Shown: positions 8,660 through 64,000 of the stretch, one piece after another | How positions within the stretch are numbered: the stretch's first letter is position 1 | Layout of the letters: each line of letters opens with the position of its first letter | Assembly (NCBI GenBank): GCA_964600235.1 | Contig: CAZRIV010000008.1 | Span: 7,683-71,682 of the forward strand | DNA length: 64,000 nt | Source: an uncultured Bacteriovoracaceae bacterium | Lineage (GTDB): Bacteria > Desulfobacterota > Desulfomonilia > UBA1062 | Reading direction: 5' to 3' | The notes under the pieces: model-generated | Databases searched by the model: none | The model's input: only the letters and a program-made list of their open reading frames with translations | What the model was told of the DNA's origin: nothing | Program-made: the position numbers and the translations under genes

Positions 8660-9777
8660 TGCGCGGCCTCTGCCTCGATCATACCTCCGTCAGTTGCCTT
8701 CTGGACGCCTGCAGTGATGATCCGCTCATGGGGCTTCAGGCCCGAGAGGACCTCTACGCCCGTCTCTGTAACCCTGCCTTCCCTGATGAGGCGGTAGGTT
8801 ATGACGCCCCCTTCCCCCACCACATACACGCCCGTGAGCTGGCCCTTGCGGATAATGGCGTTATCCGGGATGATGAGTACATCCCTCTTCCCCACGGGGA
8901 TCTTCACCCGCGCGAACAGCCCGCTCTTGAGCCCCTCCTCCGGAATGTCTATCTTGATGGTAAAGGTCCTGGTGCTCGGGCTGATGTCCGGCAGGACTTC
9001 GCGGATGGTTCCTTTCAGGTGTCTGCCCTGGGAATCGATGACAACCTCTGCAGGCATCCCTGCCCGGATCTTCCCGCTGAGACCCTCGTCAATGGCCGCT
9101 TCCACATAGGCATCGCCGAGTGCCTCGATGACGAGAAGCGGCATACCGGGCGATGCCATGCTGCCCTCATCGATCTGCTTACTGGTCACCACGCCATCCA
9201 CCGGTGAGGTTATGCGGGCGAAGGCCAGGAAGGTCTTGGCCTCCTCGGCCATGGCCCGCGTGCGCTCATAATCGGCATTGGCGACATTGCGCCTGGTCTC
9301 AACCTGGTCCATGTCCTGCTTCGAGATGATCTTCTGCTCGTGGAGGTTGTGGTACCGTTTCCAGGTTATCTCGTTCAGGTCTTTATTCTGGCGTGCAGCC
9401 TCCAGAGCCATGGCAGCGGCATGAGACCGTTCCCGTGCATCCTTGTCATCGATGGTGAGCAGCAGCTGGCCTGCCTTTACCTGTTCGCCCTCCCGGACCT
9501 TCAGCGAGGTGACGACCCCCATGACACGGCTCGCGATGGTGCTGGTGCTCTCGGACCTGATGGTGCCTGAGGTCTCGTACACATCGTCCGTCTGGGTCGC
9601 GGCAACGGTGCTTACGGTTACCCCGGTTACATGAGGCCTTGCAACGTTCTGCTCCCCGGCCTCTTCCCGGCACCCGGACAGGGAACCAGCTACTATGGCC
9701 AAACATGCGGCCAGGCAGAATACCTGCAGGGAGCGGCCCTGAAATACCTTCATGAAATTCTTCCTGTTTCCACTCAT
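8656..9777 (-). CDS. Efflux RND transporter periplasmic adaptor subunit (MFP/HlyD family, lipoprotein)
   Basis: Lipobox LSGC, a coiled-coil hairpin and beta-barrel segments typical of membrane-fusion proteins. ATGA overlap with the RND gene. No outer-membrane factor is in the operon. Confidence 0.9.
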
Positions 9778-10351
9778 ATGAAACTCCCTGTGGCGCTTCT
9801 GCCGCGATCCCTCATGACCTAATCCCTTGAGAGACCAAGAAACGGTCGAAGCATTACATGCATGGCGTTTGTCCTTTGTATCAAATCATCTTTGAGATCA
9901 AATCCATACACCTTACACACCTTTATAATTGACTGACCCGGTTAATTCAATATCCGCCCATATGGATTTCCATGCAGTCTCTCTGAAAAGGGCTCCTTCG
10001 GCCTTGATATGTATCATCATATTGAAAGGCCTCCTTGTTATACTAAGACCTCTCATTCCGTATGGCATTGATATACATCAACATCCATGCCCTCCAGGGG
10101 TATCCGCTCCATTAGGCCTTGGGCTTCTGATCCGTGGAATGACAGGTGGATGAACGGTCACGCAGGCATTGAGAACCGGGATTGACTGAGAAGGTTACGC
10201 CTCTTTCTGAGAACTGCGCCCTCCCCCGGCTCTCCCCGTCAATTTTCAGGGAGAGGTCCGGGAGAGGTGATGTGTCATATACCTCTCAGATACTGTTGCC
10301 AGGTGGTGCGCAAGCTGTGATCAGGAGATCAATCTGCACTCGGTCCGGCCT

Positions 10352-10960
10352 TCAGTCGGATTCCATGGAGGTCTTCCATACCTCCCAGACCTTGCCCACG
10401 AGGTCGGGCCCGGGTTTGAGCGTGAGCTTGCCCGGTTTCCAGCCAGACGGCGTGGCCTCGGTGCCCTTGCTGTTCCGCACATACTGGAAGGCCTGGATCT
10501 GGCGGAACGTCTCGCTCACGTTCCTGCCCACCGGCGGGGTGAGCACCTCGTAGCCCTGGATGACACCGTCCGGGTCGATGAGGAACCTGCCGCGCATCTC
10601 CACGCCGGCGTCCGGGTCGTACACCCCGTATACGCTCCCCACCCGCCCTCCACCATCTGCGAGCATGGCAAAGGGCACTCCGCCCTTGACCATCTTTGAA
10701 AGCTCGTGGTCGTTCCACATCTTGTGCACGAACACGCTGTCAACGCTCATGGAGAAGACCTCCACCCCGAGCTTGACGAATTCAGGATATCTCTCGGCAA
10801 CTGCCGAGACCTCGGTGGCTCAGACAAAGGTGAAGTCACCCGGGTAGAAGCAGAGCACCACCCACTTGCCGAGATAGTCGGAAAGCTTCACCTGCACGAA
10901 CTTGCCCTTCAAATATGCCGGGGCAGTGAAATCAGGGGCCTTGCCCCCCACCTTGATCAT
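10352..10960 (-). CDS. Peroxiredoxin (AhpC/TSA family) with in-frame UGA (putative selenocysteine) at the peroxidatic-Cys position; UGA at 10820-10822
   Basis: The two listed ORFs (10820-11236 and 10352-10765) are in the same frame. Read-through gives ...[16 protein letters not shown][UGA][35 protein letters not shown]..., which aligns to AhpC ...FYPADFTFVCPTE..., so the UGA sits exactly on the Cp. Strong RBS (AAAGGAGG) 8 nt before ATG 10960 ([11 protein letters not shown]...). A SECIS-like hairpin lies 10 nt downstream of the UGA. The resolving Cys is replaced by Ser (TPSGWKPG vs VCPAKWKEG). Confidence 0.75.
10788..10812 (-). promoter_or_regulatory. Putative bacterial SECIS hairpin for the peroxiredoxin UGA
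   Basis: On the mRNA: UGA-GCCACCGAGG-UCUCGGC-AGUU-GCCGAGA. This is a perfect 7-bp stem starting 10 nt after the UGA, with a 4-nt apical loop containing GU. Confidence 0.45.
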
Positions 10961-11143
10961 AACCTTTGCCTCCTTTCGTGGACCCTCCTGTACGGGAGGT
11001 GCAGCCTCAGGTTCCCCGCCCACCGGCCCGCCTGTCGGCCTGGCGCACCCTGCCTTGATCTCTTCAGGCATAACGAACCTCCTTTCCTGTGCATCTCTGT
11101 ACATGAAACCGGCCCCCGTATGCTGAAAGGGACCTGTTTTATG

Positions 11144-11158
11144 ATTCAATACATGAAT
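11144..11158. promoter_or_regulatory. Inverted repeat ATTCA-N5-TGAAT in the prx promoter region (candidate PerR/Fur-family operator)
   Basis: Perfect 5+5 inverted repeat inside an AT-rich Fur-box-like context (TTATGATTCAATACATGAATAA), between the divergent prx and perR genes. Confidence 0.3.
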
Positions 11159-11229
11159 AAGTATAGCCCTTACATGCTCAAAGGCAATACCCGGAGCAAC
11201 GATAATTTGACTTATAAAGCAAGAATCTC

Positions 11230-28934: not shown

Positions 28935-30635
28935 TCACTTCTCCTTGGCGTAGGGCCAGGCCACGATGCCGCCCTCCATGACCTTGACGTTGGTCCAGCC
29001 GTTGGCCTCGAGCACCAGGGCCGCTTCGTAACCTCTGAGCGAGATCTTGCAGTAGCAGATGATCTCCCTGTCCTTGTCCTGGGGAAGCTCACCAAGCCGC
29101 TTCCTCAAGGCCCCGAGCGGGATCAGGGTCTCTCCGATGCCCAGGCGCATCTGTTCGTATTCGTCAGGGCCCCGGGCATCGAGGAAGAAGGGCCGGTCCT
29201 TCTCGTCCAGTTTCTTTCTCACCTCCATGGGCGAGATACCCTTGAGCCTGCCCTTGAGCTTGTTCTGCATGAGGTGGGCCGTGGCGATGAAGTGGTCGAT
29301 GGCAAGAGAGAAGGGGGGCGCGTAGGGGAGGTCGGCGTTCACGATGTCCTCCACGTGCATGCGCGCCTGGATGGCCATGGCCCACTGGGCGATCTGCTTG
29401 GCCACGTTGCCGGGTCCGATGCACTGAGCGCCCAGGATCTTCCCGCTCGACCGCTCGGCCACGAGCTTGGTGATGATGAGCTCCCCGCCCATGAAGTTCG
29501 GCCTGTCCGTGCTCGCGTTCATTACGGTAATGATGTCCTCGATGCCGTTCTTCTTCGCAGCGGTCTCGGACAGACCCGTGGAGCCCGCAGAGAAGTCGAA
29601 GACCTTGCAGATGCCGGTCTGTATGGTGCCCGGGAAGGTGACCGTGTTGCCGACAACGGCGTTTTCCCCCGCTACCCTGCCCTGGAGGTTCGCCAGGTCG
29701 CCGTAGGGTGCCAGCACCTTTCTGCCCGTGATGCGGTTAAGGGTCTCCACGCAGTCGCCCACGGCATAGATGTCCGCATCGGACGTCTGCATGTACTCGT
29801 TCACCTCGATGCCGCCCGTGGCCCCGATGGTGAGGCCGGCCTCTTTCGCGAGCTTCACGTTCGGGCTCACGCCGATGGCCACCACGGCCAGGTCGCAGGG
29901 CAGTTCGGTGCCGTTGGACAGTTTCACCCCGGTGAGCGTGCCGTTCTCGCCCAGGAACTCGGCGATGCCGTTGCCCGTGATCACGTTGGCGTTCTTGGTC
30001 CGCACGTGGTTCTCCACGAGCTTTGCCAGATCCCAGTCAAGGAAGGTGAGCAGCTGGGGCAGCATTTCGATGACCGTGATCTCGATGCCCGCCAGTTCCA
30101 GTGCCTCGCAGGTCTCGATGCCGATGAGTCCGCCGCCGATGATGGCCGCCTTCTTGATAATGCCTTCGTCGCGTACCTTGCGCAGGAAGTCGGCGTCCTT
30201 CATGGACTGCAGGGTGGTGATGCCCTTGAGGTTCGTACCAGGGATGGGGGGCATCTTGGGCGTGGCGCCGGTTGAGATGATGAGCCTGTCGTAGGCCATG
30301 CTGCCGGTCTCGCCGGTGGCAAGGTTCCGGTAGCTCACCGTGTGCGCCTTCCTGTCGATGCCGGTCACCTCGGTGAGCGTCCGCGCATCGATGGCCTTGG
30401 CGTTCAGGTAAAACTTCGGGTCCCGCACGATGCCGGCCGGCGTGCACAACAGCATGTTGCGGTCGTCGAAGTATCCGCCCACGTAATAGGGATACCCGCA
30501 GGACGCCATGGACAGGTCCGCTTCCTTCTGGAAGATCACCACCTCCGCATGCTCGTCCATGCGCCTTGCCTTTGCCGCAGCCTTGGGCCCGGCCGCGGAC
30601 CCGCCGATTACCACTATCCTCTTTCTGTCTACCAA
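28935..30635 (-). CDS. CoA-disulfide reductase / NADH-dependent persulfide reductase with C-terminal rhodanese domain (CoADR-RHD)
   Basis: FAD motif VVIGGSAAG, single redox Cys SMASCGYPYY, an NAD(P) GxGxxG, and a C-terminal rhodanese with active Cys (ICYCKISLRG). Confidence 0.85.
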   Translation of the reverse strand: MVDRKRIVVIGGSAAGPKAAAKARRMDEHAEVVIFQKEADLSMASCGYPYYVGGYFDDRNMLLCTPAGIVRDPKFYLNAKAIDARTLTEVTGIDRKAHTVSYRNLATGETGSMAYDRLIISTGATPKMPPIPGTNLKGITTLQSMKDADFLRKVRDEGIIKKAAIIGGGLIGIETCEALELAGIEITVIEMLPQLLTFLDWDLAKLVENHVRTKNANVITGNGIAEFLGENGTLTGVKLSNGTELPCDLAVVAIGVSPNVKLAKEAGLTIGATGGIEVNEYMQTSDADIYAVGDCVETLNRITGRKVLAPYGDLANLQGRVAGENAVVGNTVTFPGTIQTGICKVFDFSAGSTGLSETAAKKNGIEDIITVMNASTDRPNFMGGELIITKLVAERSSGKILGAQCIGPGNVAKQIAQWAMAIQARMHVEDIVNADLPYAPPFSLAIDHFIATAHLMQNKLKGRLKGISPMEVRKKLDEKDRPFFLDARGPDEYEQMRLGIGETLIPLGALRKRLGELPQDKDREIICYCKISLRGYEAALVLEANGWTNVKVMEGGIVAWPYAKEK

Positions 30636-55116: not shown

Positions 55117-56187
55117 ATGAAAAAGGTAATCACGGCTCTGTTCTTACTGGCCTTCATGGCATCCGGCGCCCGTGCGGATTCCATCGATGACGCCCTGGGA
55201 ACGGACACATCGCCGCAGGTCAGAGAGAGCGTCAGGGAGATGGTACGGGCTGGCATCCATCAGGATGATGCCATTGGGATCACAAGGGCCATGGTCCTAA
55301 ACAGGTATCAGGAGCGCAACGTCCTGCAGGTGCACCAGTCCGTCCGGGAGGCCAGGCGTGCAGGTCTGCCGACCGAGCCTCTCATGAACAAACTCCGGGA
55401 AGGCATTGCAAAACAGGTACGCTCCGAGGCGGTGGCAAAGGCCGTGGATCAGGTGAGGGGCCGGTACGCGCATGCATACGGCAAGGCAAAGGGCCTTGCC
55501 TCTGTTGAAGGCAATCTGGCCCCGCTGGGCAACGCCATTGCCGAGGGCATGGCTGCCGGCATGGCCCCGGGTGATGTGGACGCAATCGCCCGGAAACTAA
55601 AGGACCACACACGGACCATGGACAGGGAGCAGGTTCACAAGCTCTCCATGGAGAGCTTCCTGACCGCCAGAGACATGACAAGGCAGGGCGTCGCTCCGGC
55701 GACGGGAACCGATGTCGTATGCCAGGCGCTGGAGAAGTCATGGCAGTACAGTGACATGGAAAGGCTGAGAAACTCGTTCATGACACAAGCCCGCCTGGAG
55801 AACCCTCAGGGGCTTGCCATGAGATACTCCAGGGCCATCAGGAACGGCTTCGATTCGAGCCGGATCGATTCGAAACAGGCCCGGGAGACATATGGCCAGG
55901 GTGCCCAGAGAGGACAGGGATCGCCGGGTGGAAAAGGCATGGGGTCTGGCGACGGTTCCACTTCAGGAGGTAAGGGCGGGGCGTCGGGTAACGGTGGGGG
56001 ATCGGGTTCTGGCGGAAGCGGTTCTTCAGGCAGTGGGGCTGGCTCAGGCGGGAGCGGATCTTCAGGAAGCGGCGGCTCATCCGGCAGTGGATCGGGGTCT
56101 GGTAGCGGGTCCGGGTCAGGTGGCGGTTCAGGCTCCGGCTCAGGCGGAAGCGGCGGTTCCGGATCGGGAGGACGAGGCGGCAAGTAA
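55117..56187 (+). CDS. Secreted protein with long C-terminal Gly/Ser low-complexity tail
   Basis: RBS AAAAGGAG, signal peptide MKKVITALFLLAFMASGARA, a helical domain, then ~100 aa of (G/S)n. Confidence 0.6.
   Translation: MKKVITALFLLAFMASGARADSIDDALGTDTSPQVRESVREMVRAGIHQDDAIGITRAMVLNRYQERNVLQVHQSVREARRAGLPTEPLMNKLREGIAKQVRSEAVAKAVDQVRGRYAHAYGKAKGLASVEGNLAPLGNAIAEGMAAGMAPGDVDAIARKLKDHTRTMDREQVHKLSMESFLTARDMTRQGVAPATGTDVVCQALEKSWQYSDMERLRNSFMTQARLENPQGLAMRYSRAIRNGFDSSRIDSKQARETYGQGAQRGQGSPGGKGMGSGDGSTSGGKGGASGNGGGSGSGGSGSSGSGAGSGGSGSSGSGGSSGSGSGSGSGSGSGGGSGSGSGGSGGSGSGGRGGK
55915..56185. repeat. GGN/AGC trinucleotide-rich low-complexity tract encoding the Gly/Ser tail
   Basis: Imperfect tandem repeats of ggc/ggt/agc/tcc. 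A candidate for slipped-strand length variation. Confidence 0.55.
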
Positions 56188-56345
56188 TGGGATATGGTAT
56201 AGTTGACTCTCCAAAGGACGTAACTATGGAGGCAAGTGATGAAGGTACGAAGGAGAGAGGACATTACAGGATTTATCACGGTCTTCTGTCTGACCATGCC
56301 ACATGTAACCTTCTAGCCATGAACAAGATAAAAGGAGGTACTGCC

Positions 56346-56501
56346 ATGAAGAAGTTGATCATAACGATGCTGTTTCTTGCACTGACAACAGGGGTTGTAA
56401 TCGCCGGAGGTGATCAGAACCAGGGAACAAGCGGTTCCGGGTCGACATCGACCGGTTCGACTTCGCAGGGCCAGGCATCTCAATCACGTTCAGGTCGATA
56501 A
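56346..56501 (+). CDS. Small secreted Gly/Ser/Thr-rich peptide (51 aa)
   Basis: Strong RBS AAAAGGAGG before ATG 56346. Signal peptide MKKLIITMLFLALTTGVVIA, then a GS-rich region. Confidence 0.4.
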   Translation: MKKLIITMLFLALTTGVVIAGGDQNQGTSGSGSTSTGSTSQGQASQSRSGR

Positions 56502-56788
56502 TTCATCTATCTGTAAGCTTGTGCTATGCCCACGGGCAAAGGCTTATGCCTTTGCCCGTTTCGTTATCCGGCTCGCTCGGGGTACGGACCATCGGGACAA
56601 AATATTTGTCTCTTGTCTTTTTTCAATGCCCCCTTATAATTAAAGAAAAGCTTTTTGATTTTCATTACCATGAATGGATTCAGGAATATACTCGGCGATA
56701 ATAGGGCGTAATTTCAGTTGGTTTTAATTCCTGCATCTCTGCGGGATGAGGGACTTTATGTACATGAGAACAAGGGAGATCCCATGAC

Positions 56789-58027
56789 ATGAAGCATTGG
56801 CCCTTCCTTTTCATCCTGCCGGCCATGCTGTTCATTGCCGTCCCTGCAGATGCCCCTCGGGCGGATTCCAACTCCTGCGTTATCTGCCACACCGACGGTG
56901 CCAAGCTGAAGTCCCTGGTCATCCCGCCCAAGATCCACTCTGAGGGAGAGGGTTGAGCGGGTGCTCCTCCGCCGGTCCGGGCGGAAGACTACTACAAGGG
57001 TTACCTGGTGGACTCCTCTCTTCTGGAAAAGGACCCTCACCTCTCCAGGGGATGCCGCTCCTGCCACAAGGGAAATGCCGATGCCCAGGATAAGGACGAG
57101 GCGCATAAAGGCATGCTCAAGCGGCCCTCCGACGACCTCGCTACCTGTGGAGGCAAGTGCCATGGGAAGATCGCCGCAAACTATGCCAAATCTCTGCATT
57201 ACACATCCCTGGGCCAGAGGCAGGGGGTCATCCCCCGGTTCTCCAGGGCCGAGGTCAAGCTCTTCGACCAGAAGGTCTTCCAGCAGTCCTGCCGCAGCTG
57301 CCACGCCTCCTGCGGGTCCTGCCATGTGAAATCGCCCGCGGTATCGGGCATAAGCCTGGGTCTCATCAAGGGCCACAAGTTCATCAAGAAGGACGAGGGC
57401 AAGACCTGCGCCTTCTGCCACGGCGGCCGCGTATACCCCGAATACACCGGTGAGTACGGAGGGTCTACGGATATACACTACCAGAAGGGCATGATGTGCG
57501 TGGACTGCCACAAGAAGGTGGAGATGCACGGCGACGGCAGGAGATACCTGGGGAAGCAGGAAGTGAAAGACCGGCCGAAGTGCACGAACTGCCACAAGAC
57601 CATCAAGTCGGGCAAGCTCCGCGTACAGGTGGCCCACGATGCCCACAAGGGCAAGGTGAGCTGCTACGGCTGCCACGCCGCGGGCCAGTACCGGAACTGC
57701 TACACCTGCCACAAGGAGTCGACCTCGAAGCCCGGCTTCATCCTGGGGAAGAATCCGCGCAATCTAAAAGAGGTCACCACACTGAGGATCATCCCCACGG
57801 TACGCGACAGCTTCGCCCATGCAGGAATCAAGCAGGAGAACTACGACAGGCTTCCCAACTACTGGAATACCCCGGCACACACCATCAAAAAACGGACGGA
57901 CCGGACACGGTCTTGCGATATCTGTCATACGGAGAAGAAGGATTTCCTCACCCGGGAGACCCTTCTGAAGGACGGCTCCAAGGCCAATCAGGGACTGATC
58001 CATGTCCCGAAACCCATAACACACTAG
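56789..58027 (+). CDS. Periplasmic multiheme cytochrome c (~11 CxxCH) with in-frame UGA at 56954-56956 (candidate Sec/recoding site, or a disrupted gene)
   Basis: ATG 56789 encodes signal peptide MKHWPFLFILPAMLFIAVPADA plus a first heme motif CVICH. The sequence ...SEGEG-UGA-AGAPPPVRAEDYYKGYLVDSSLLEK... continues in the same frame into the 57008-58027 ORF, which itself lacks a signal peptide. Ten further CxxCH motifs follow. Confidence 0.55.
56968..56985 (+). promoter_or_regulatory. SECIS-like hairpin 11 nt downstream of the cytochrome UGA
   Basis: UCCGCC-GGUCCG-GGCGGA: a 6-bp GC-rich stem with a GGUC apical loop (compare the GGUC apex of E. coli fdhF SECIS) in the canonical window after the UGA. 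Confidence 0.3.
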
Positions 58028-58040
58028 ACAAGGAGGAAGT

Positions 58041-58937
58041 ATGAAACAGCTCAAAACATGTGCACTCATGATGGTGGTGTTCGCTCTCCTCATCCCGGCA
58101 GCCGTCATGGCCCGGGGAATAGATCCCATCGTCTCGACGGAATGGCTCGACAAGAACCTGGCAGACGCGAAGCTCGTGATCGTGGATATCCGCAAGGTGG
58201 AGGAGTACAACGCGGGACACATTCCCGGTGCGGTCAATGTCTTCTACAATGTCTGGGCACCAGGCAAGGGTGACATGCAGAACGAACTCCCGGCCGACGA
58301 TGACCTGAAGGATGCCCTGTCCGCCAACGGGATCGCAGCCGATTCCAAGGTGGTGGTGGTGGGTAAGACCGACACCCCGCCCGACAAGGTGAACGTCACA
58401 AGGGTAGCGCTCACGCTCCTCTATGCGGGCGTAAGCGATGTGGCTGTCTTGGACGGCGGGATGAACAAGTGGACCTCAGAGACCAAGAAGGTTTCCACGG
58501 ATGCGGTGAAGCCCAAGGCAAAGGACTACAAGGGAAAGTTCAACAAGGGCCTGTTCATCAAGAAGGAAGATGTTGCGGCCAAGATCGGCAAGGCGATCAT
58601 ACTGGATACCCGTGAGGCGCCTTTCTATAGCGGAGAGAAGAAGCTCGACTTCGTTGCCAAGCTCGGTCATGTCAAAGGTGCGGTGAACCTCCCCACCATG
58701 TCCCTGATCTTCAACGCGGACGGGACATACAAGGCAGCTGCCGACCTGATGGTCCTTGCGGCAAAGGCTGCGGGTGAGGACAAGGCAAAAGAGATCATCG
58801 TGTACTGCGATTCGGGCAGGGTGGCCTCGGCCTGGTGGTACCTATTAAAAGAAGTCCTGGGGTACAAGGACGTGAAGATCTACGACGGCTCCTTCCAGGA
58901 CTGGGCCAAGGATGCAAATCTGCCCGTAGAACCGTAA
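58041..58937 (+). CDS. Periplasmic tandem-rhodanese sulfurtransferase (Sud/thiosulfate-sulfurtransferase-like)
   Basis: Signal peptide, two rhodanese domains, and active-site Cys loop IVYCDSGRVAS in the second. Confidence 0.85.
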   Translation: MKQLKTCALMMVVFALLIPAAVMARGIDPIVSTEWLDKNLADAKLVIVDIRKVEEYNAGHIPGAVNVFYNVWAPGKGDMQNELPADDDLKDALSANGIAADSKVVVVGKTDTPPDKVNVTRVALTLLYAGVSDVAVLDGGMNKWTSETKKVSTDAVKPKAKDYKGKFNKGLFIKKEDVAAKIGKAIILDTREAPFYSGEKKLDFVAKLGHVKGAVNLPTMSLIFNADGTYKAAADLMVLAAKAAGEDKAKEIIVYCDSGRVASAWWYLLKEVLGYKDVKIYDGSFQDWAKDANLPVEP

Positions 58938-59007
58938 TGCACCAGCCGGGACGGGACAGGCACAGCCATGTCCCGTCCCGTGTACCATGGAAAGGATTGG
59001 GGAACGA

Positions 59008-60837
59008 ATGACTCGCTTGAAGGCCATACGTCTCATCTTCCTGGTCATGGCAGTAACTGTCGTGCTGCCGGCGGGCAGGTCCGACAGCGGCCAGCGGTCA
59101 TCCGCACACCAGGACATCTGGCTGCGCAACGAGACCGGCGATCGCATCACGCCGACGGACAACGCGGCAGAGCCCTACAGCCCGAGGAAGACCTGCGGGG
59201 CCTGTCACCACTACCCGACCATCGTGCAGGGCGACCACTTCCGCATGGGCTCCCCGGCAAAGAAGGCCGATCCTTCCCGGGCGAACCTCCCCCTGGAGCT
59301 TCTGCCGGGCGAAGGGCGACCCGCGCCCTACGGCGGTGCAGCGATCTATGACTGGATCGCCGCGAATGCCTCCTACCACCCGGGCGGCGGACCCATGGAG
59401 TGTCTCAACCTGCGTCCGGCCGGAGGAACACCGACGAACCTCGTAGAGGCGGAGCGCATCGTCTCCTCGTCCAGGAACCCCCATTTCCAGTCCCGCCTCA
59501 CCCCGGACGGCCACAGCCGCTTCAAGGCAAGCGGAGTCCTGGAAGGGGACTGCCTCATGTGCCACCTGAACGAGTACCGCCTTGAGCGGCGCAACGCCCA
59601 GATCGCCTCCCGGAACTACCGGTGGGCGGCCACGGCGGGCTCAGGCCTGGGCGAGGTGACCGGCCGGGTGTGGACCCCGGGCGAGGGCAAAGGCACCTGG
59701 GAATTCTCCCGCAGGCCGCTGGTGAAATACCACTGGAAGAACGGCATGTTCAAAACGGATGGCAGGCTTTCGGGACGCCTCATCCGCAAGGCGGTCTCTT
59801 CAAGCTCATGCCTGGCGTGCCACGGGACCACGCAGGCCCTCCGGACAGGGACCCTGTACCGCTCAGGCGATGATGCCCACATAAAAGCGGGCCTGCGGTG
59901 CGCAGACTGCCACACCTTGGCCGAGGCTGCACCTGGAGGCAGGCTCGGTCACCGCTTCGGCGGCTCGTCCGCATCCGGTGACTTCCGGCAGACCGGCATG
60001 AGGACCTGCGCCGACTGTCACCTGGCACAGGGGGGGCGTGCCCCCGACCCGACACTGACCCATGCGGACATGCTGCCCAATGCCACATTCCACCTGAGGC
60101 TGCTGGCCTGCACGGCCTGCCACGCCACGGCACAACCGGCAAAGGGGGCGTACCTGCTGGACCTCTCCACCGGCGCCGGACAACGGTTTACCGCACAGGG
60201 TCTTGAAGCACTCATCTCCCCGGCCGATGCCGCGAATCCCGCCCGGGAATCCTGGAGGCCCTGGCTCGCCATCTACGACCTCAAGGGATCACGCGGCCGG
60301 CGCTACGTGCCTGTTGCCCTGCACACGGCCCAGTGGTTCGGGGTGAAGGGACACAAAAACCGGATAACACCGTTGGAAGCCCCTGTGGTGGCCAATGCCT
60401 TCAGGCTCTGCACCGGCATCACCACTGCGGAGGTCAGGGACACCGCGGGGAGAAAACTCAGGATCCCCACCGTGGCCACCGAGGCCGACACGGCGAAGAT
60501 GCTTCACGCGCTGACACGCCTGGGCGTGAAGCAGGCGGTCTTCGTCTCGGACAAGGCCTATTCGCTCAAAGGCGGCAAGGTCGTGTCCTCGGAGCTGCCC
60601 TTGATCAACACCCTGAGCCTGCCGGTCTGGCACAACGTCCAGCCTGTGGCGAAAAGGCAGACCTATGGCGCCAAAGGCTGCACCGACTGCCACCAGGACA
60701 AGGCCCCCTTCTTTACGAAGATGAAGGTAAAATCCGTGGGGCGGTTCCTGAAGGACGACTACCCGGTGCCCAAGGCGCCCAATGCATCCCCCCAGATGCT
60801 GGACTGGGGTTACGAGGAAGTGCCGAGCCATGAATAG
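59008..60837 (+). CDS. Periplasmic multiheme cytochrome c (>=8 CxxCH)
   Basis: Signal peptide MTRLKAIRLIFLVMAVTVVLPA. Heme motifs CGACH, CLMCH, CLACH, CADCH (x2), CTACH and CTDCH. ~610 aa. Confidence 0.85.
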   Translation: MTRLKAIRLIFLVMAVTVVLPAGRSDSGQRSSAHQDIWLRNETGDRITPTDNAAEPYSPRKTCGACHHYPTIVQGDHFRMGSPAKKADPSRANLPLELLPGEGRPAPYGGAAIYDWIAANASYHPGGGPMECLNLRPAGGTPTNLVEAERIVSSSRNPHFQSRLTPDGHSRFKASGVLEGDCLMCHLNEYRLERRNAQIASRNYRWAATAGSGLGEVTGRVWTPGEGKGTWEFSRRPLVKYHWKNGMFKTDGRLSGRLIRKAVSSSSCLACHGTTQALRTGTLYRSGDDAHIKAGLRCADCHTLAEAAPGGRLGHRFGGSSASGDFRQTGMRTCADCHLAQGGRAPDPTLTHADMLPNATFHLRLLACTACHATAQPAKGAYLLDLSTGAGQRFTAQGLEALISPADAANPARESWRPWLAIYDLKGSRGRRYVPVALHTAQWFGVKGHKNRITPLEAPVVANAFRLCTGITTAEVRDTAGRKLRIPTVATEADTAKMLHALTRLGVKQAVFVSDKAYSLKGGKVVSSELPLINTLSLPVWHNVQPVAKRQTYGAKGCTDCHQDKAPFFTKMKVKSVGRFLKDDYPVPKAPNASPQMLDWGYEEVPSHE

Positions 60838-61573
60838 CTCATTACGCCCACTGCTGCTTGCGGGTCTTATCCTGCTGACCATTGCCTGGGCCCTCCCCGC
60901 CCCCCTCACGGCCGCCCAGAGCTGGAAGATGGTGAAGGCCGAGACGCTGGATTCCTGGCTGAAGACGGAGCAGCTCACGCTGGTGAACGTCATGAGCCGC
61001 ATCGAGTGCCTGGACCACCGCATCGCGGGTTCAGAGTGCATTGCCTGCGAGGAGTTCAAGGACAGGCTCTCCAGCATCCCCCGGGACAGGAAACTCGTGA
61101 TCTACTGCGAGAGCGAGGTGTGCACCCGCAGCTGCCTGGCCGCAGACGAGGCGACCAAGGCCGGTTTGAAGGACGTTTATGTGCTGGAAGGGGGCATGCC
61201 GGCATGGAAGGCCGCCGGGTTCACTCTGGAATCGGTGCAGCGCATCCCGCGCATGCCCGTTTCCTCGGTGAAGGCTACTGAGATCAAGACCTGGATGAAC
61301 CGCCACCCGGAGTTCATGGTGCTCGATATCCGCTCCCGGGAAAAATATGAAAAGGGTCACCTCGATGGCGCCATGAGCATCCCCCTGCACCAGCTGCACG
61401 AACGATACCAGGAAATCCCCCACGACAGGGCGCTGATGCTGGTGGACGACCAGGGCTTCCGCTCCTTCCTGGCTGCCAGCTACCTTGCCCGCAAGGGGTT
61501 CAAGGTCATGCGGCTCTTCGGGGGCATGGCGGCGTGGAAGACCTTCTCCGAAGGCAAGAGGCAGGTGAAATGA
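60830..61573 (+). CDS. Secreted tandem rhodanese-domain protein
   Basis: The ATG overlaps the upstream stop. Signal peptide, then two rhodanese folds with Cys loops (VIYCESEVC... and a C-terminal domain). Confidence 0.8.
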   Translation: MNSSLRPLLLAGLILLTIAWALPAPLTAAQSWKMVKAETLDSWLKTEQLTLVNVMSRIECLDHRIAGSECIACEEFKDRLSSIPRDRKLVIYCESEVCTRSCLAADEATKAGLKDVYVLEGGMPAWKAAGFTLESVQRIPRMPVSSVKATEIKTWMNRHPEFMVLDIRSREKYEKGHLDGAMSIPLHQLHERYQEIPHDRALMLVDDQGFRSFLAASYLARKGFKVMRLFGGMAAWKTFSEGKRQVK

Positions 61574-63417
61574 GGCGAAACCATCTCTCAGCGCGCTCCG
61601 TCATGGTCCTGGTGGCCTGGTGCCTGTCCCTGGCCCTGTGCGGCACCGTGGAGGCAAAGACCTGCCAGGACTGCCACTACGGCGCCATGTACACGAGCGG
61701 GTTTGCAGCCTCGGTGCACGCCAAGAACGGGTGCCTGAGCTGCCACAGCGACATAACGGACATGGATCTTCACATGAAGGGTCTGAAGAAGCCTTCCCCG
61801 GTGACCTGCGGGAAGTGCCACGCCGGGATCGCCCAGAAATACCGCAAGAACTTCCACTACCTCCAGGAGGACTTCCGTTGTGTGGACTGCCACAGCGACG
61901 TGCACACCCGCACTGCCCCCACCAGGGACATCAAGATCCGCACCATCGAGAAGTGCACCCAGTGCCACGGCAACGAGGAGTACGTCAACTCCGGCCACGC
62001 CGAGGCCGTGCTCAAGGGCAACCGTGACGCCGCTGCCTGCGGCGACTGCCACGGGCTGCACGACACCCGGGTCTTCCACACCTCCCTGTCGGCCTACCCA
62101 GAAGAGGCGCGCATGTTCTACAACGACAAGTGCATCTCCTGCCACGACGATTCGGCCATGATGAAGCGGAACAACCTCTCGGACAAGGTGGTGGAATACT
62201 ACGAGGAGACCTACCACGGCAAGGTCCAGGGCGTGGGGTTCGCCACGCTCGTGGCCGGATGCGCCGACTGCCACCAGACCCACAACATCCTGCCCAAGAC
62301 CGACCCGCGCTCTTCCATCCACCCGGACAACCTGGTGGAAAACTGTGGCCGCTGTCACAAGGGCTTCCACAAGCGCTTCGTGGACTACAAGGCCCACCCG
62401 GACTACCACGACCGGCACAACTACCCGGCCCTGTTCTGGACCTTCGTCTTCATGTCCGGACTCCTCATCTTCACCTTCGTCTTTTTCTGGACCCACACGT
62501 TACTCTGGTGGCGCAAGAGCTACTGGGAGCATCACGAGCAGGAAAAGAAGGGCGTCCTGCCAGAAGTCTGCACGACCGACACGGAGGGCTTCCAGCACGT
62601 CCAGCGCTTCAGCGTGATGGACCGGGCCATGCACGTGCTGCTCATCCTCTCCTTTTTCACGCTCGTTACCACCGGGTTCCCGCTCAAGTACCACAAGGCC
62701 CCCTGGGCCAAGTTCATCATGGGTATCTGGGGCGGAGCGCCCATGGCCGGTCTCTTCCACCGCATCGCGGCCGTGGTGCTCATGGTGCTCTTCGCGGTCG
62801 TGGCCGTGCGATGCCTGCTCTTCCTGTTCCCCCCGGGAATCGGGTTCAAGGGCTGGACGGACCGCCTCTTCAGCCCGGACTCCCTGTTCCCTAGGTGGAA
62901 GGACTGGGAGGACATCAAGGGCATGATCCGCTGGTTCTTCAACAAGGGAGAGAAGCCGCGGTTCGACCGGTGGTCCTACTGGGAGAAGTTCGACTTCTGG
63001 GCCGTGTTCTGGGGCATGTTCGCCATCGGCGGCTCCGGGGTGCTCCTGTGGAATCCCGAGATATCCTCGTATATCGTGCCCGGCTGGGTGCTGAACGTGG
63101 CCACGCTGATCCATTCCGAAGAGGCCCTCCTGGCGGCGCTCTTCATCTTCACGGTCCACTTCTTCAACACCCACTTCGTGCCCGAGAAGTTCCCCATGGA
63201 CCGGCTCATCTTCACGGGCACCTATTCCATTGACAACCTGAGGCGGGAGCGGCCCGAGGAGTATGAGCGGCTTGTTGCAGAGCAGAAAATAGAGAACCTC
63301 AAGCGCAGGCATCCGAGCATCCCGCTTAAGCTAGTATCGGCAGTCATCGGGCTTGCGAGCCTGCTGCTGGGACTGACACTCACCGTTCTGTTCATCTGGG
63401 TGATCGTGGGGCTGTGA
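61570..63417 (+). CDS. CbcL-like fusion: periplasmic nonaheme cytochrome c domain + FdnI/HydC-type diheme cytochrome b membrane domain
   Basis: Signal/anchor, then nine CxxCH (CQDCH...CGRCH). The C-terminal half has 4-5 TM helices with conserved His, typical of PF01292 b-type cytochromes. The ATG overlaps the upstream stop. Confidence 0.85.
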   Translation: MRRNHLSARSVMVLVAWCLSLALCGTVEAKTCQDCHYGAMYTSGFAASVHAKNGCLSCHSDITDMDLHMKGLKKPSPVTCGKCHAGIAQKYRKNFHYLQEDFRCVDCHSDVHTRTAPTRDIKIRTIEKCTQCHGNEEYVNSGHAEAVLKGNRDAAACGDCHGLHDTRVFHTSLSAYPEEARMFYNDKCISCHDDSAMMKRNNLSDKVVEYYEETYHGKVQGVGFATLVAGCADCHQTHNILPKTDPRSSIHPDNLVENCGRCHKGFHKRFVDYKAHPDYHDRHNYPALFWTFVFMSGLLIFTFVFFWTHTLLWWRKSYWEHHEQEKKGVLPEVCTTDTEGFQHVQRFSVMDRAMHVLLILSFFTLVTTGFPLKYHKAPWAKFIMGIWGGAPMAGLFHRIAAVVLMVLFAVVAVRCLLFLFPPGIGFKGWTDRLFSPDSLFPRWKDWEDIKGMIRWFFNKGEKPRFDRWSYWEKFDFWAVFWGMFAIGGSGVLLWNPEISSYIVPGWVLNVATLIHSEEALLAALFIFTVHFFNTHFVPEKFPMDRLIFTGTYSIDNLRRERPEEYERLVAEQKIENLKRRHPSIPLKLVSAVIGLASLLLGLTLTVLFIWVIVGL

Positions 63418-63457
63418 TCATGCAGCTCGTCACATTACGCAGGAGAAAAAGACCTTC

Positions 63458-63535
63458 CCTGTACAAATAATGATGAAAACTGTCAGGAAAAGTCATATGA
63501 CTTTTCCTGACAGTTTTCATCATTATTTGTACAGG
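63458..63535. repeat. 78-bp perfect palindrome (39-bp arms, centred on CATATG)
   Basis: cctgtacaaataatgatgaaaactgtcaggaaaagtcat|atgacttttcctgacagttttcatcattatttgtacagg is an exact reverse complement. It lies between the convergent cytochrome and crp-like genes. Confidence 0.9.
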
Positions 63536-63646
63536 CCGTTTTTTCGTGCCTCTCGGCTGCAAGTACTTATTTATCCCAGATCTCGTGTTTGAAGGGGTTT
63601 CAAATTGATCCGTTCAAAGCAGTGATCTCGATGCCCGGGGAAGATA

Positions 63647-64000
63647 CTACTCCCCTTCTGCGAGCGCCTTCAGTGCCCTGGCATCCAGAATTCGGACCAC
63701 CCTTCCCTGAACTTCCAGCATGCCCTGGTCCTGCAGCTTCCTGAATGCCCGGGACAGGGCCTCGGGTGTGGACCCGAGTATCTTGGACAGCTCGCGCTGC
63801 GTAATAGGGAGCTCGATGGACCAGGCGCCGTTTCCCTCTTTTCTGCTCAGGGCCATGATGAAGGCGGCCAGTCGTTCCGGGACCTCTTTGAGCGCCAGGG
63901 ACTCGATGAGCGTCATGGACTCCTTGAGCCTGAGCGACAGCACCTTGAGGATGTTCAGAAGGAGCTCCGGCTCTTTCATGACGATCTCCTCCACAGCGGA
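63647..64000 (-). CDS. Crp/Fnr-family transcriptional regulator, C-terminal part (N-terminus beyond window end)
   Basis: C-terminal HTH ...TQRELSKILGSTPEALSRAFRKLQDQGML..., preceded by part of the dimerisation helix. The ORF is open to the window edge. Confidence 0.75.
   Translation of the reverse strand, partial: SAVEEIVMKEPELLLNILKVLSLRLKESMTLIESLALKEVPERLAAFIMALSRKEGNGAWSIELPITQRELSKILGSTPEALSRAFRKLQDQGMLEVQGRVVRILDARALKALAEGE

Follow-up and report, generated by a model that had tools for sequence, protein, structure and literature searches.

The 64,000-bp window analysed in this work (contig CAZRIV010000008.1, positions 7,683 to 71,682, from the genome of an uncultured bacterium) was found to carry five co-directional genes at 56789-63417, here designated cyt1, rhd1, cyt3, rhd2 and cyt5, in which three multiheme cytochromes c alternate with two rhodaneses (Table 1). 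A first-pass annotation, made from the letters of the sequence, had described these genes as translationally coupled, and the overlaps that it reported proved exact: the ATG of rhd2 at 60830 falls within the last codons of cyt3 (TAG 60835-60837), and rhd2 and cyt5 share an ATGA at 61570-61573. The ribosome-binding site AAGGAGG precedes rhd1. Each of the five products starts with a hydrophobic signal-like segment, consistent with export, and a total of 27 c-type heme sites is encoded by the operon. No open reading frame (ORF) or domain for a molybdopterin catalytic subunit of the Psr/Phs/Ttr type is present in the cassette, as had been noted before, or in its conserved relatives, and the cassette includes no outer-membrane porin and no lipoprotein cytochrome. 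In Pfam and NCBIfam no cassette protein scored above the cutoff of a named family, the cytochromes matching only generic c7, c3 and MtrC-type Pfam models, and literature searches for this cassette retrieved no description. The most important element of the operon is the product of cyt1, which probably represents a new selenoprotein family paired with a dedicated rhodanese.

Table 1 Genes and sequence features of the cytochrome-rhodanese operon. Positions are those of the window.
Feature	Position	Strand	Description
cyt1	56789-58027	+	412-codon periplasmic cytochrome c; frame read through an in-frame TGA
In-frame TGA	56954-56956	+	Codon 56, putative selenocysteine codon (U56), motif GEG-U-AGAPPPV
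SECIS-like hairpin	56966-56987	+	CC-UCCGCC / GGUCCG loop / GGCGGA-AG
rhd1	58041-58937	+	Secreted tandem rhodanese, 298 aa
cyt3	59008-60837	+	Multiheme cytochrome, 609 aa
rhd2	60830-61573	+	Secreted tandem rhodanese, 247 aa
cyt5	61570-63417	+	Signal peptide, nine CXXCH, then membrane domain of 5-6 helices
Terminator-like hairpin	56532-56559		Upstream of the promoter-like matches
Two sigma-70-like promoter matches	56613-56692	+	Within the 290-bp gap upstream of cyt1
Hairpin between rhd1 and cyt3	58948-58979	+	11-bp perfect G+C-rich stem (GGGACGGGACA/TGTCCCGTCCC), read from the sequence
AT-rich perfect palindrome	63458-63545		Arms of ~39 nt centred on CATATG, then a T-run; directly after the cyt5 stop

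The in-frame TGA of cyt1

The reading frame of cyt1 holds a TGA, and a mechanical list of ORFs therefore shows 57008-58027 only. In the first-pass annotation the product was taken for a plain cytochrome of about 11 hemes; the heme number was confirmed by motif count (ten CXXCH and one CX3CH, the latter being CXXCH in homologues), and the TGA had been overlooked. This codon, putatively read as selenocysteine (Sec; U56), lies 22 residues past the first heme motif, so that it separates the signal peptide and that motif from the remaining ten. All Cys residues of cyt1 sit within heme motifs, and only nine non-motif His residues are invariant.

A scan of one genome per species gave 389 loci with a cyt1 relative among about 186,000 species genomes. 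The motif around U56 could be located at 84 loci, comprising the window, the best 80 of these 389 and a few others, and the codon at this site is TGA in 82 of the 84, TCA in one and CGA in one. Conservation in frame extends to both flanks of the codon (GEG-x-AGAPPPV(R/K)AE), and as the TGA is kept at 58-92% protein identity it is not a random nonsense mutation. In related contigs gene callers give a 54-55-aa ORF and a cytochrome of about 340 aa, and the majority of homologues in databases are entered as proteins of 340-351 aa whose start falls just past the TGA.

The hairpin located downstream of the TGA resembles a selenocysteine insertion sequence (SECIS). In a gap-free alignment of 76 distinct sequences, covering 48 nt from the TGA, columns 15-20 (UCCGCC) pair with columns 27-32 (GGCGGA) around a six-base loop, in which G22-U23 is invariant and begins 18 nt after the UGA; this geometry is typical of bacterial SECIS elements (E. 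coli fdhF; bSECISearch model). Paired cells amount to 82.7% for this structure vs no more than 51.5% after a shift of the partner by one to three columns, and compensatory changes occur at two pairs (G-C to U-A at one, C-G to G-C in four sequences at the other). Apparent mismatches in the stem arise from a second pairing register with a bulged C29, which needs G26 (in an Arg CGG codon), and the affected sequences do have G26. With both registers allowed, six pairs form in 72 of the 76 sequences and five pairs in the other four. In 500 synonymous recodings, made with the peptides and the codon usage of the genes kept, only 1.1% form all six pairs (maximum 6.6%). The first Pro of the stem is encoded by CCT in 74/76 sequences, as against 11% of the Pro codons in these genes, and the Ala of the stem by GCG in 75/76, as against 31% overall; third positions beyond the stem vary freely. 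The stem codons, rare ones that have become fixed, are under selection at the RNA level.

An exhaustive profile search with the cyt1 family retrieved 1,084 representatives of 50%-identity clusters at E <= 0.001, and 104 of the best 150 matches were truncated right after the TGA position. Cys occupies the U56 position in 12 distant full-length homologues, in the motif GxGC[GA]G (e.g. PGEGCGGTVPE, VESCGGPPPPL). This clade is common in metagenome-assembled genomes (MAGs) labelled Ignavibacteriales, Melioribacteraceae, Bacteroidetes/Bacteroidota and Calditrichaeota, one of the best matches being from Chloroflexota, and its members are annotated only as hypothetical proteins or, wrongly, as sulfurtransferases. 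Across the family the names found in the sources are 'hypothetical protein', 'cytochrome c3 family protein' or the wrong sulfurtransferase name; the JGI label 'thiosulfate/3-mercaptopyruvate sulfurtransferase' is borne by seven proteins that contain no rhodanese domain (P0129, P0142, P0397, P0424, P0446, P0491 and P0502). The same mislabel has been reported for DealDRAFT_1917 of Dethiobacter, which is upregulated on thiosulfate, and expression of a multiheme cytochrome whose gene lies in a cluster with rhodanese genes rises on thiosulfate in this organism (PMC10376724). The Dethiobacter cluster could not be tied to the cyt1 family by sequence and is a lead only.

The cytochromes or CXXCH proteins given in a 2026 review table of prokaryotic selenoprotein families number only three: ExtKL (NF040886), the GSU2204 family (NF041027) and the OTR-family octaheme proteins (TIGR04315). 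Neither cyt1 nor seven of eight scanned members of its family matched any of these models, and the remaining member gave a weak match to TIGR04315 (E 2.7e-4). The cyt1 family is therefore not represented in those selenoprotein lists that were checked.

The standard signature of a selenoprotein combines a conserved UGA, a hairpin of the SECIS type and homologues with Cys, and it is therefore very probable that cyt1 is one, with its UGA read as Sec. Were the TGA a genuine stop, the locus would specify a 55-aa monoheme peptide and a separate 10-heme protein, or would be a pseudogene, and no selenoprotein would be made. The way in which gene callers split the locus is in line with this, as is an Rfam scan of 56000-64000 at E <= 10, in which no SECIS family was found. 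Yet heme attachment needs export, and the part after the TGA has neither a signal peptide nor a start codon before 57008; the peptide immediately after the TGA is, moreover, strongly conserved in frame across the 84 loci. On this in-frame conservation, the constrained stem codons and the existence of Cys homologues, the reading as an ordinary stop or pseudogene was rejected, and we hold it to be very improbable. Besides the Rfam result, certain observations do count against Sec. RNAalifold chose a trivial 4-pair structure for the 76-sequence alignment and did not select the hairpin, and the folding energy of the whole segment is only weakly better than that of synonymous recodings, the shift being slight because the peptide is G+C-rich whatever the codons. 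No tRNA-Sec was found in the 64-kb window or in 47 related loci, and close full-length homologues have Trp, Ser, Arg, Ala or Tyr at the U56 position, never Cys. Several of these non-Sec codons are one substitution from TGA; such variants are unusual for a catalytic Sec and could indicate a residue that electron transfer does not require, or one that serves as a heme ligand. The single-sequence fold z-score was not significant.

The conserved cassette and the partner proteins

Relatives share the order cyt1-rhd1-cyt3-rhd2-cyt5 down to a cyt3 identity of about 40%, and the genes around it are unrelated. Sequence extends 7 kb or more past cyt1 in 54 loci; of these, the full cassette was found in 30, cyt1-rhd1 alone in 14, cyt1-cyt3-rhd2-cyt5 (without rhd1) in four and cyt1 alone in four, the other two having other arrangements. 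Hosts of the full cassette are mostly Syntrophales, Smithella and Syntrophus MAGs, and the occurrence of the same order in dozens of genomes is far beyond chance. In about 64 of 81 TGA loci rhd1 adjoins cyt1, and it is not adjacent in any of the five close non-Sec variants with readable context (L005 Ser, L082 Arg, L088 Tyr, L089 Arg and L090 Ala). In Cys-type relatives from other phyla (Ignavibacteria and Bacteroidota-like contigs) a rhodanese directly follows in two of three distinct contexts.

An alternative quinol module, consisting of NrfD, a 4Fe-4S protein with a twin-arginine (TAT) signal and a c7-type cytochrome, was found beside cyt1-rhd1 in six loci (L050, L064, L075, L076, L079 and L086). 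In some cyt1-rhd1 loci the genes for NrfD and the TAT-signal 4Fe-4S protein lie upstream, and the Sec codon is preceded by an in-frame fusion of a seven-heme segment; in others rhd1 is followed by NrfD, an FeS protein and an 11-12-heme cytochrome. As the electron-input modules vary, the constant core is the Sec cytochrome with its tandem rhodanese, and the quinol-oxidising module is interchangeable. The seven-heme fusion in L050 (about 9344-11161), L064, L075 and L079, preceded by NrfD and the TAT-signal 4Fe-4S protein, is of the c7 type and would give a read-through protein of about 17 hemes. In some Smithella-like relatives (L004 5341-7512, L086 629-2790) a TAT-signal FAD_binding_2 flavoprotein and a small c3-type cytochrome precede the cyt1 cassette, and this pair might form a further reductase in the periplasm that draws on the same source of electrons.

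The rhd1 protein matched the Pfam Rhodanese model over two domains (E 1.3e-38). Its active loop C256-D-S-G-R-V is located in the C-terminal domain, and Cys256 (loop CD[S/T]G) is invariant in 63/63 sequences. Two rhodanese domains are likewise present in rhd2, where C60 and C70 do not vary, the Cys of the canonical loop (Cys93) occurs in 24/37 sequences only, and the C-terminal domain is inactive, with Asp at the catalytic position. The two domains and the signal-like N-termini agree with the first-pass description of both proteins as secreted tandem rhodaneses, and the active Cys that had been proposed for rhd1 is secure, the canonical one of rhd2 being kept only in part. Their designation as Sud-like was not upheld. 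The nearest solved relatives of rhd1 are tandem thiosulfate/mercaptopyruvate sulfurtransferases (TST/SseA), the best solved relatives of both proteins taken together belong to the tandem TST/SseA and YnjE types, and their PDB sequence matches do not include Sud. A Sud-type transferase, which is a dimer of a single domain of ~130 aa, was rejected because both rhodaneses have two domains and Sud was unmatched.

The likely start of cyt3 is at 59008 (MTRLK...), an upstream ATG at 58987 being located just 3' of the hairpin that follows rhd1; this hairpin partly occludes the alternative start. At least eight hemes had been assigned to cyt3, and this was revised to seven canonical CXXCH motifs, the second motif having degenerated. 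The latter reads CGxCHPGGGPME in about half of the homologues, and in the clade of the window both Cys are lost (ASYHPGGGPME), His124 and GGG-x-x-E being invariant despite this loss (residues 120-132). The family is ancestrally octaheme, and by motif order the lost motif would be that of the OTR catalytic heme. A structure model (predicted local distance difference test, pLDDT, 87.8) indicates that cyt3 carries an OTR-like heme domain, together with an extra beta-rich domain of ~165 residues at about 376-540. Relatives of cyt3 have eight CXXCH like OTR of Shewanella oneidensis (PDB 1sp3), which likewise acts on sulfur compounds; unlike OTR, cyt3 has lost the Cys pair of the second motif, possesses the beta-rich domain and is paired with a rhodanese, and a sequence-level match is lacking. 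PDB sequence and profile searches did not retrieve 1sp3 and gave, as for cyt1, local heme-motif matches to NrfA-type proteins only. Membership in the OTR family was rejected on the seven CXXCH instead of eight and on the absence of a TIGR04315 match. A remote cyt3 homologue (P0088, 29% identity) was found inside an ars-type operon (L006/L007, 7933-15276) with genes for ArsR, an ArsP permease, thioredoxins, DUF6951, a methyltransferase, a low-molecular-weight-phosphatase ArsC, Acr3 and DsbD.

The cyt5 protein has nine CXXCH between residues 32 and 263, and its membrane part shows five strong hydrophobic segments and one weaker. The b domain came close to the cutoff of PF01292 (Ni_hydr_CYTB; E 9.2e-7, 29.2 bits vs 30.1) and gave 34 bits with TIGR01583 (FdnI) vs a cutoff of 115.9; PF01292 matches are carried by orthologues in relatives. 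In CbcL, an inner-membrane cytochrome of Geobacter with both c and b hemes, a part with nine c hemes is joined to a dihaem cytochrome b domain that has six helices and is of the HydC/FdnI type (PMC9129911). The earlier identification of the last cytochrome as a nonaheme c/b fusion of the CbcL type was borne out as a likeness in architecture. As in CbcL (GSU0274), an N-terminal periplasmic domain with its nine CXXCH in about 270 residues precedes a membrane domain, which in cyt5 is probably of the FdnI/HydC type, and a role as quinol oxidase is presumed; unlike CbcL, which stands alone, cyt5 shares its operon with rhodaneses and a Sec cytochrome.

The first-pass annotation had named a gene order not conserved in relatives, inactive rhodanese loops and cytochromes of a well-characterised family with an unrelated substrate (e.g. 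nitrite) as grounds for giving up its proposal of a respiratory module. Since the order is conserved beside unrelated flanks, the Cys of rhd1 is invariant and none of the cytochromes reaches the NCBIfam cutoff of any named family, the proposal was not overturned.

Comparison with known systems and possible function

MccSep/ExtKL is a Sec-containing multiheme cytochrome that reduces polysulfide and, more weakly, selenite, with a preference of about sevenfold for polysulfide; in it, Sec is the residue that attacks the substrate, and the electrons come from a Cys-ligated heme (PMC13510729). In the ext cluster of Geobacter sulfurreducens, the genes for MccSep (GSU2937-2936) accompany those for the rhodanese ExtH, the multiheme cytochromes ExtM and ExtN and the Rieske/cytochrome b module ExtOP (PMC13510729, PMC5877670). 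Like MccSep, cyt1 is a periplasmic multiheme cytochrome c with a predicted UGA-encoded Sec and a hairpin downstream of it, and in both cases database annotation splits the gene at the TGA. The surroundings are alike as well, with genes for a rhodanese, for additional multiheme cytochromes and for a quinol module containing a membrane cytochrome b, and no molybdenum enzyme is included. However, the cyt1 family is not homologous to MccSep at the family level (0/8 members match NF040886 at E <= 10). It has 11 heme motifs vs five, and its Sec is at residue 56/412 in GEGUAG, whereas that of MccSep is in a DGUP loop of a C-terminal Ig-like domain; membership in MccSep was rejected on motif number, Sec position and family model. 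The rhodanese rhd1 is a soluble tandem TST type encoded immediately downstream and ExtH a 49-kDa lipoprotein, the quinol module is CbcL-like or NrfD/FeS instead of Rieske/cytochrome b, the operon has no porin, unlike the ext cluster, and the hosts are Syntrophales instead of Geobacter. Because the same logic is built of parts from different families, the operon is an analogue of the ext cluster and not a member. There is a similar relation to the polysulfide respiration of Wolinella succinogenes (Sud and PsrABC), in which a periplasmic rhodanese-fold sulfur carrier serves a quinol-linked membrane complex: relatives of the cassette include NrfD (PsrC-like) and 4Fe-4S (PsrB-like) subunits, but the molybdopterin subunit is replaced by a Sec/Cys multiheme cytochrome, and the rhodaneses are tandem TST/SseA-like, unlike the single-domain Sud.

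A molybdenum-independent route from the quinone pool to sulfur or selenium substrates, as put forward in the first pass, is consistent with all of these findings and has a precedent in MccSep/ExtKL (PMC13510729). In our proposal the operon would encode a molybdenum-free, quinol-fed reductase for sulfane sulfur or another chalcogen that depends on Sec and rhodanese, for which we put the chances at about even. The cyt5 protein would take electrons from menaquinol and pass them to the OTR-like cyt3 with its seven covalent hemes and from there to the 11 hemes of cyt1, where the UGA would be decoded as Sec with the aid of the downstream hairpin. Cys256 of rhd1 would pick up sulfane sulfur as a persulfide, the source being polysulfide or S0, possibly thiosulfate, or alternatively a selenium species. 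U56, which is probably the catalytic key of cyt1, would attack this persulfide to form a Se-S bond, and reduction of the bond through the heme chain would release sulfide; rhd2 and cyt3 would act as a second carrier/relay pair. This mechanism is suggested by the link between Sec and the adjacent rhodanese, the invariant rhodanese Cys, the exchange of Sec for Cys among homologues and the MccSep precedent. The minimal evolutionary unit would be the Sec/Cys cytochrome with its rhodanese, to which either a CbcL-like or an NrfD plus FeS quinol module can be attached.

The gene anatomy, its conservation, the recoding signature, the exchange of Sec for Cys, the association of Sec with rhodanese and the OTR-like fold are observed here; how electrons travel and in which direction, what the substrate is and how Sec would act on a persulfide are inferred. 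Some points speak against such a reductase. Reduction of polysulfide, and especially of thiosulfate, is energetically demanding from menaquinol, and to our knowledge the host clade, which consists of syntrophs, is not known to respire sulfur. Unlike MccSep, which has a conserved Cys ligating heme 2, cyt1 offers no free Cys to partner Sec. An AlphaFold2 model of a close full-length cyt1 homologue had a pLDDT of 54 and was set aside. The association of Sec with rhd1 adjacency has a naive hypergeometric probability of ~8e-4, a value that ignores shared ancestry and carries no phylogenetic correction.

The same machine might instead reduce selenium or tellurium oxyanions such as selenite, or other metalloids, in detoxification or selenium handling, the rhodanese carrying a perselenide. 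MccSep also reduces selenite (PMC13510729), the ext cluster was first linked to selenite/tellurite reduction (PMC5877670), and rhodanese binds selenium according to a reference cited in PMC5877670. Weak, sub-threshold NCBIfam matches (rhd1 with ExtH, cyt1 with ExtM and ExtN; all 'selenite/tellurite reduction operon') and the distant cyt3 homologue in the ars-type operon would fit as well; the Ext-family matches, however, are far below the cutoffs and reflect generic heme motifs, and the ars context is limited to remote relatives of cyt3 and does not extend to cyt1-rhd1. With the preference of MccSep for polysulfide, and with 27 c-type heme sites and quinol coupling being costly for a trace substrate, we regard this function as unlikely. 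That the flow runs in the opposite direction, with sulfide, polysulfide or thiosulfate oxidised or disproportionated at the Sec cytochrome and rhodanese and electrons delivered via cyt5 to quinones, in the manner of TsdA or SoxAX, appears quite improbable. Reactions of the OTR/TsdA type are reversible, and direction is not fixed by sequence; moreover, heme enzymes with a chalcogen ligand or nucleophile such as TsdA and SoxAX are oxidative, a relation noted by the authors of the MccSep study (PMC13510729). Against this, the hosts are strict anaerobes and syntrophs and no high-potential acceptor is evident in the loci, the CbcL type has been described as a quinol oxidase that serves acceptors of low potential (PMC9129911), and the NrfD/FeS modules of relatives are typical of reductive, quinol-oxidising complexes.

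A general periplasmic electron-transfer module, serving extracellular or interspecies transfer, would use the cytochromes as wires and U56 as a heme ligand or redox tuner, with the rhodaneses in accessory roles (protection, maturation). The architecture of cyt5 is indeed that of CbcL, a quinol oxidase of extracellular electron transfer (PMC9129911), and the Pfam matches to c7, c3 and MtrC-type domains and the tolerance of five other residues at the Sec position in close variants point the same way. Since only nine invariant non-motif His are available for the 11 hemes of cyt1, the Sec could be a heme ligand. However, the cassette lacks an outer-membrane porin or lipoprotein cytochrome, the Cys of rhd1 is invariant, and both the adjacency of the Sec/Cys cytochrome and rhodanese across phyla and the absence of rhd1 from all five non-Sec variants indicate sulfur-transfer chemistry, so that a mere wire is distinctly unlikely.

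It is a tentative possibility, rather short of an even chance, that cyt1 founds a widespread, hitherto unrecognised selenoprotein family (Sec or Cys forms) of cytochromes with about 11 hemes, in which the N-terminal GEG-U/C-AG residue cooperates with a dedicated periplasmic tandem rhodanese, the two acting as a molybdenum-free terminal reductase of sulfane sulfur (polysulfide, S0, possibly thiosulfate) with interchangeable quinol modules, and that a hidden sulfur/selenium respiration exists in the 'obligately syntrophic' Syntrophales and Smithella and in relatives from Ignavibacteria, Bacteroidota and Calditrichota. Reduction of polysulfide by a multiheme cytochrome that depends on Sec is a recent finding, established for a single family (MccSep, 2025-26). 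Another family with this solution, sharing no detectable family-level sequence similarity with MccSep, would make the combination of a chalcogen nucleophile, a heme wire and a rhodanese a general alternative to Psr-type molybdoenzymes. The family is large, and nearly all of its entries are mis-annotated, the genes being split or truncated at the TGA. Syntrophic degraders of fatty acids and aromatics, which dominate methanogenic digesters and sediments, would gain a respiratory capacity, and the modelling of how the sulfur, selenium and carbon cycles are coupled in these habitats would be affected. As a cultured carrier exists (Syntrophus gentianae, P0128), the hypothesis is directly testable.

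Regulatory elements and neighbouring genes

Upstream of cyt1 four matches to the sigma-70 consensus were found vs 1.9 expected, the promoter evidence being weak because these are consensus matches only. Terminator-like elements occur at both ends of the cassette and no plus-strand terminator inside it, and together with the promoter-like matches they fit one transcription unit. The hairpin between rhd1 and cyt3 is possibly an element of mRNA processing, stability or attenuation. The palindrome after cyt5 looks like a bidirectional terminator that closes the operon; it is unusually long and AT-rich for this genome and could therefore be a repeat element or a protein-binding site, and the only matches of the Rfam scan, spurious ones to miRNA families, fall on it.

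An ECF (extracytoplasmic function) sigma factor and a putative anti-sigma factor are encoded in the upstream flank and a Crp/Fnr regulator downstream. Their presence is as first annotated, but these flanks are not conserved in relatives, and the three regulators were rejected as members of the module. The ECF sigma gene, the anti-sigma gene (with a CBM48-like domain) and a lipoprotein gene are followed at 55117-56501 by genes for two secreted proteins without a family match. The first has 356 aa and a long Gly/Ser-rich tail; the second is a small peptide with an N-terminal hydrophobic segment (MKKLIITMLFLALTTGVVIAGG) and a Ser/Thr/Gly-rich part after it.

The minus strand at 28935-30635 encodes a second, cytoplasmic enzyme of sulfane sulfur, in which a flavoprotein resembling CoA-disulfide reductase is fused to a C-terminal rhodanese (Npsr / CoA-persulfide reductase type). 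It was rejected as a further selenoprotein, since SMASCGYPY has Cys and not Sec.

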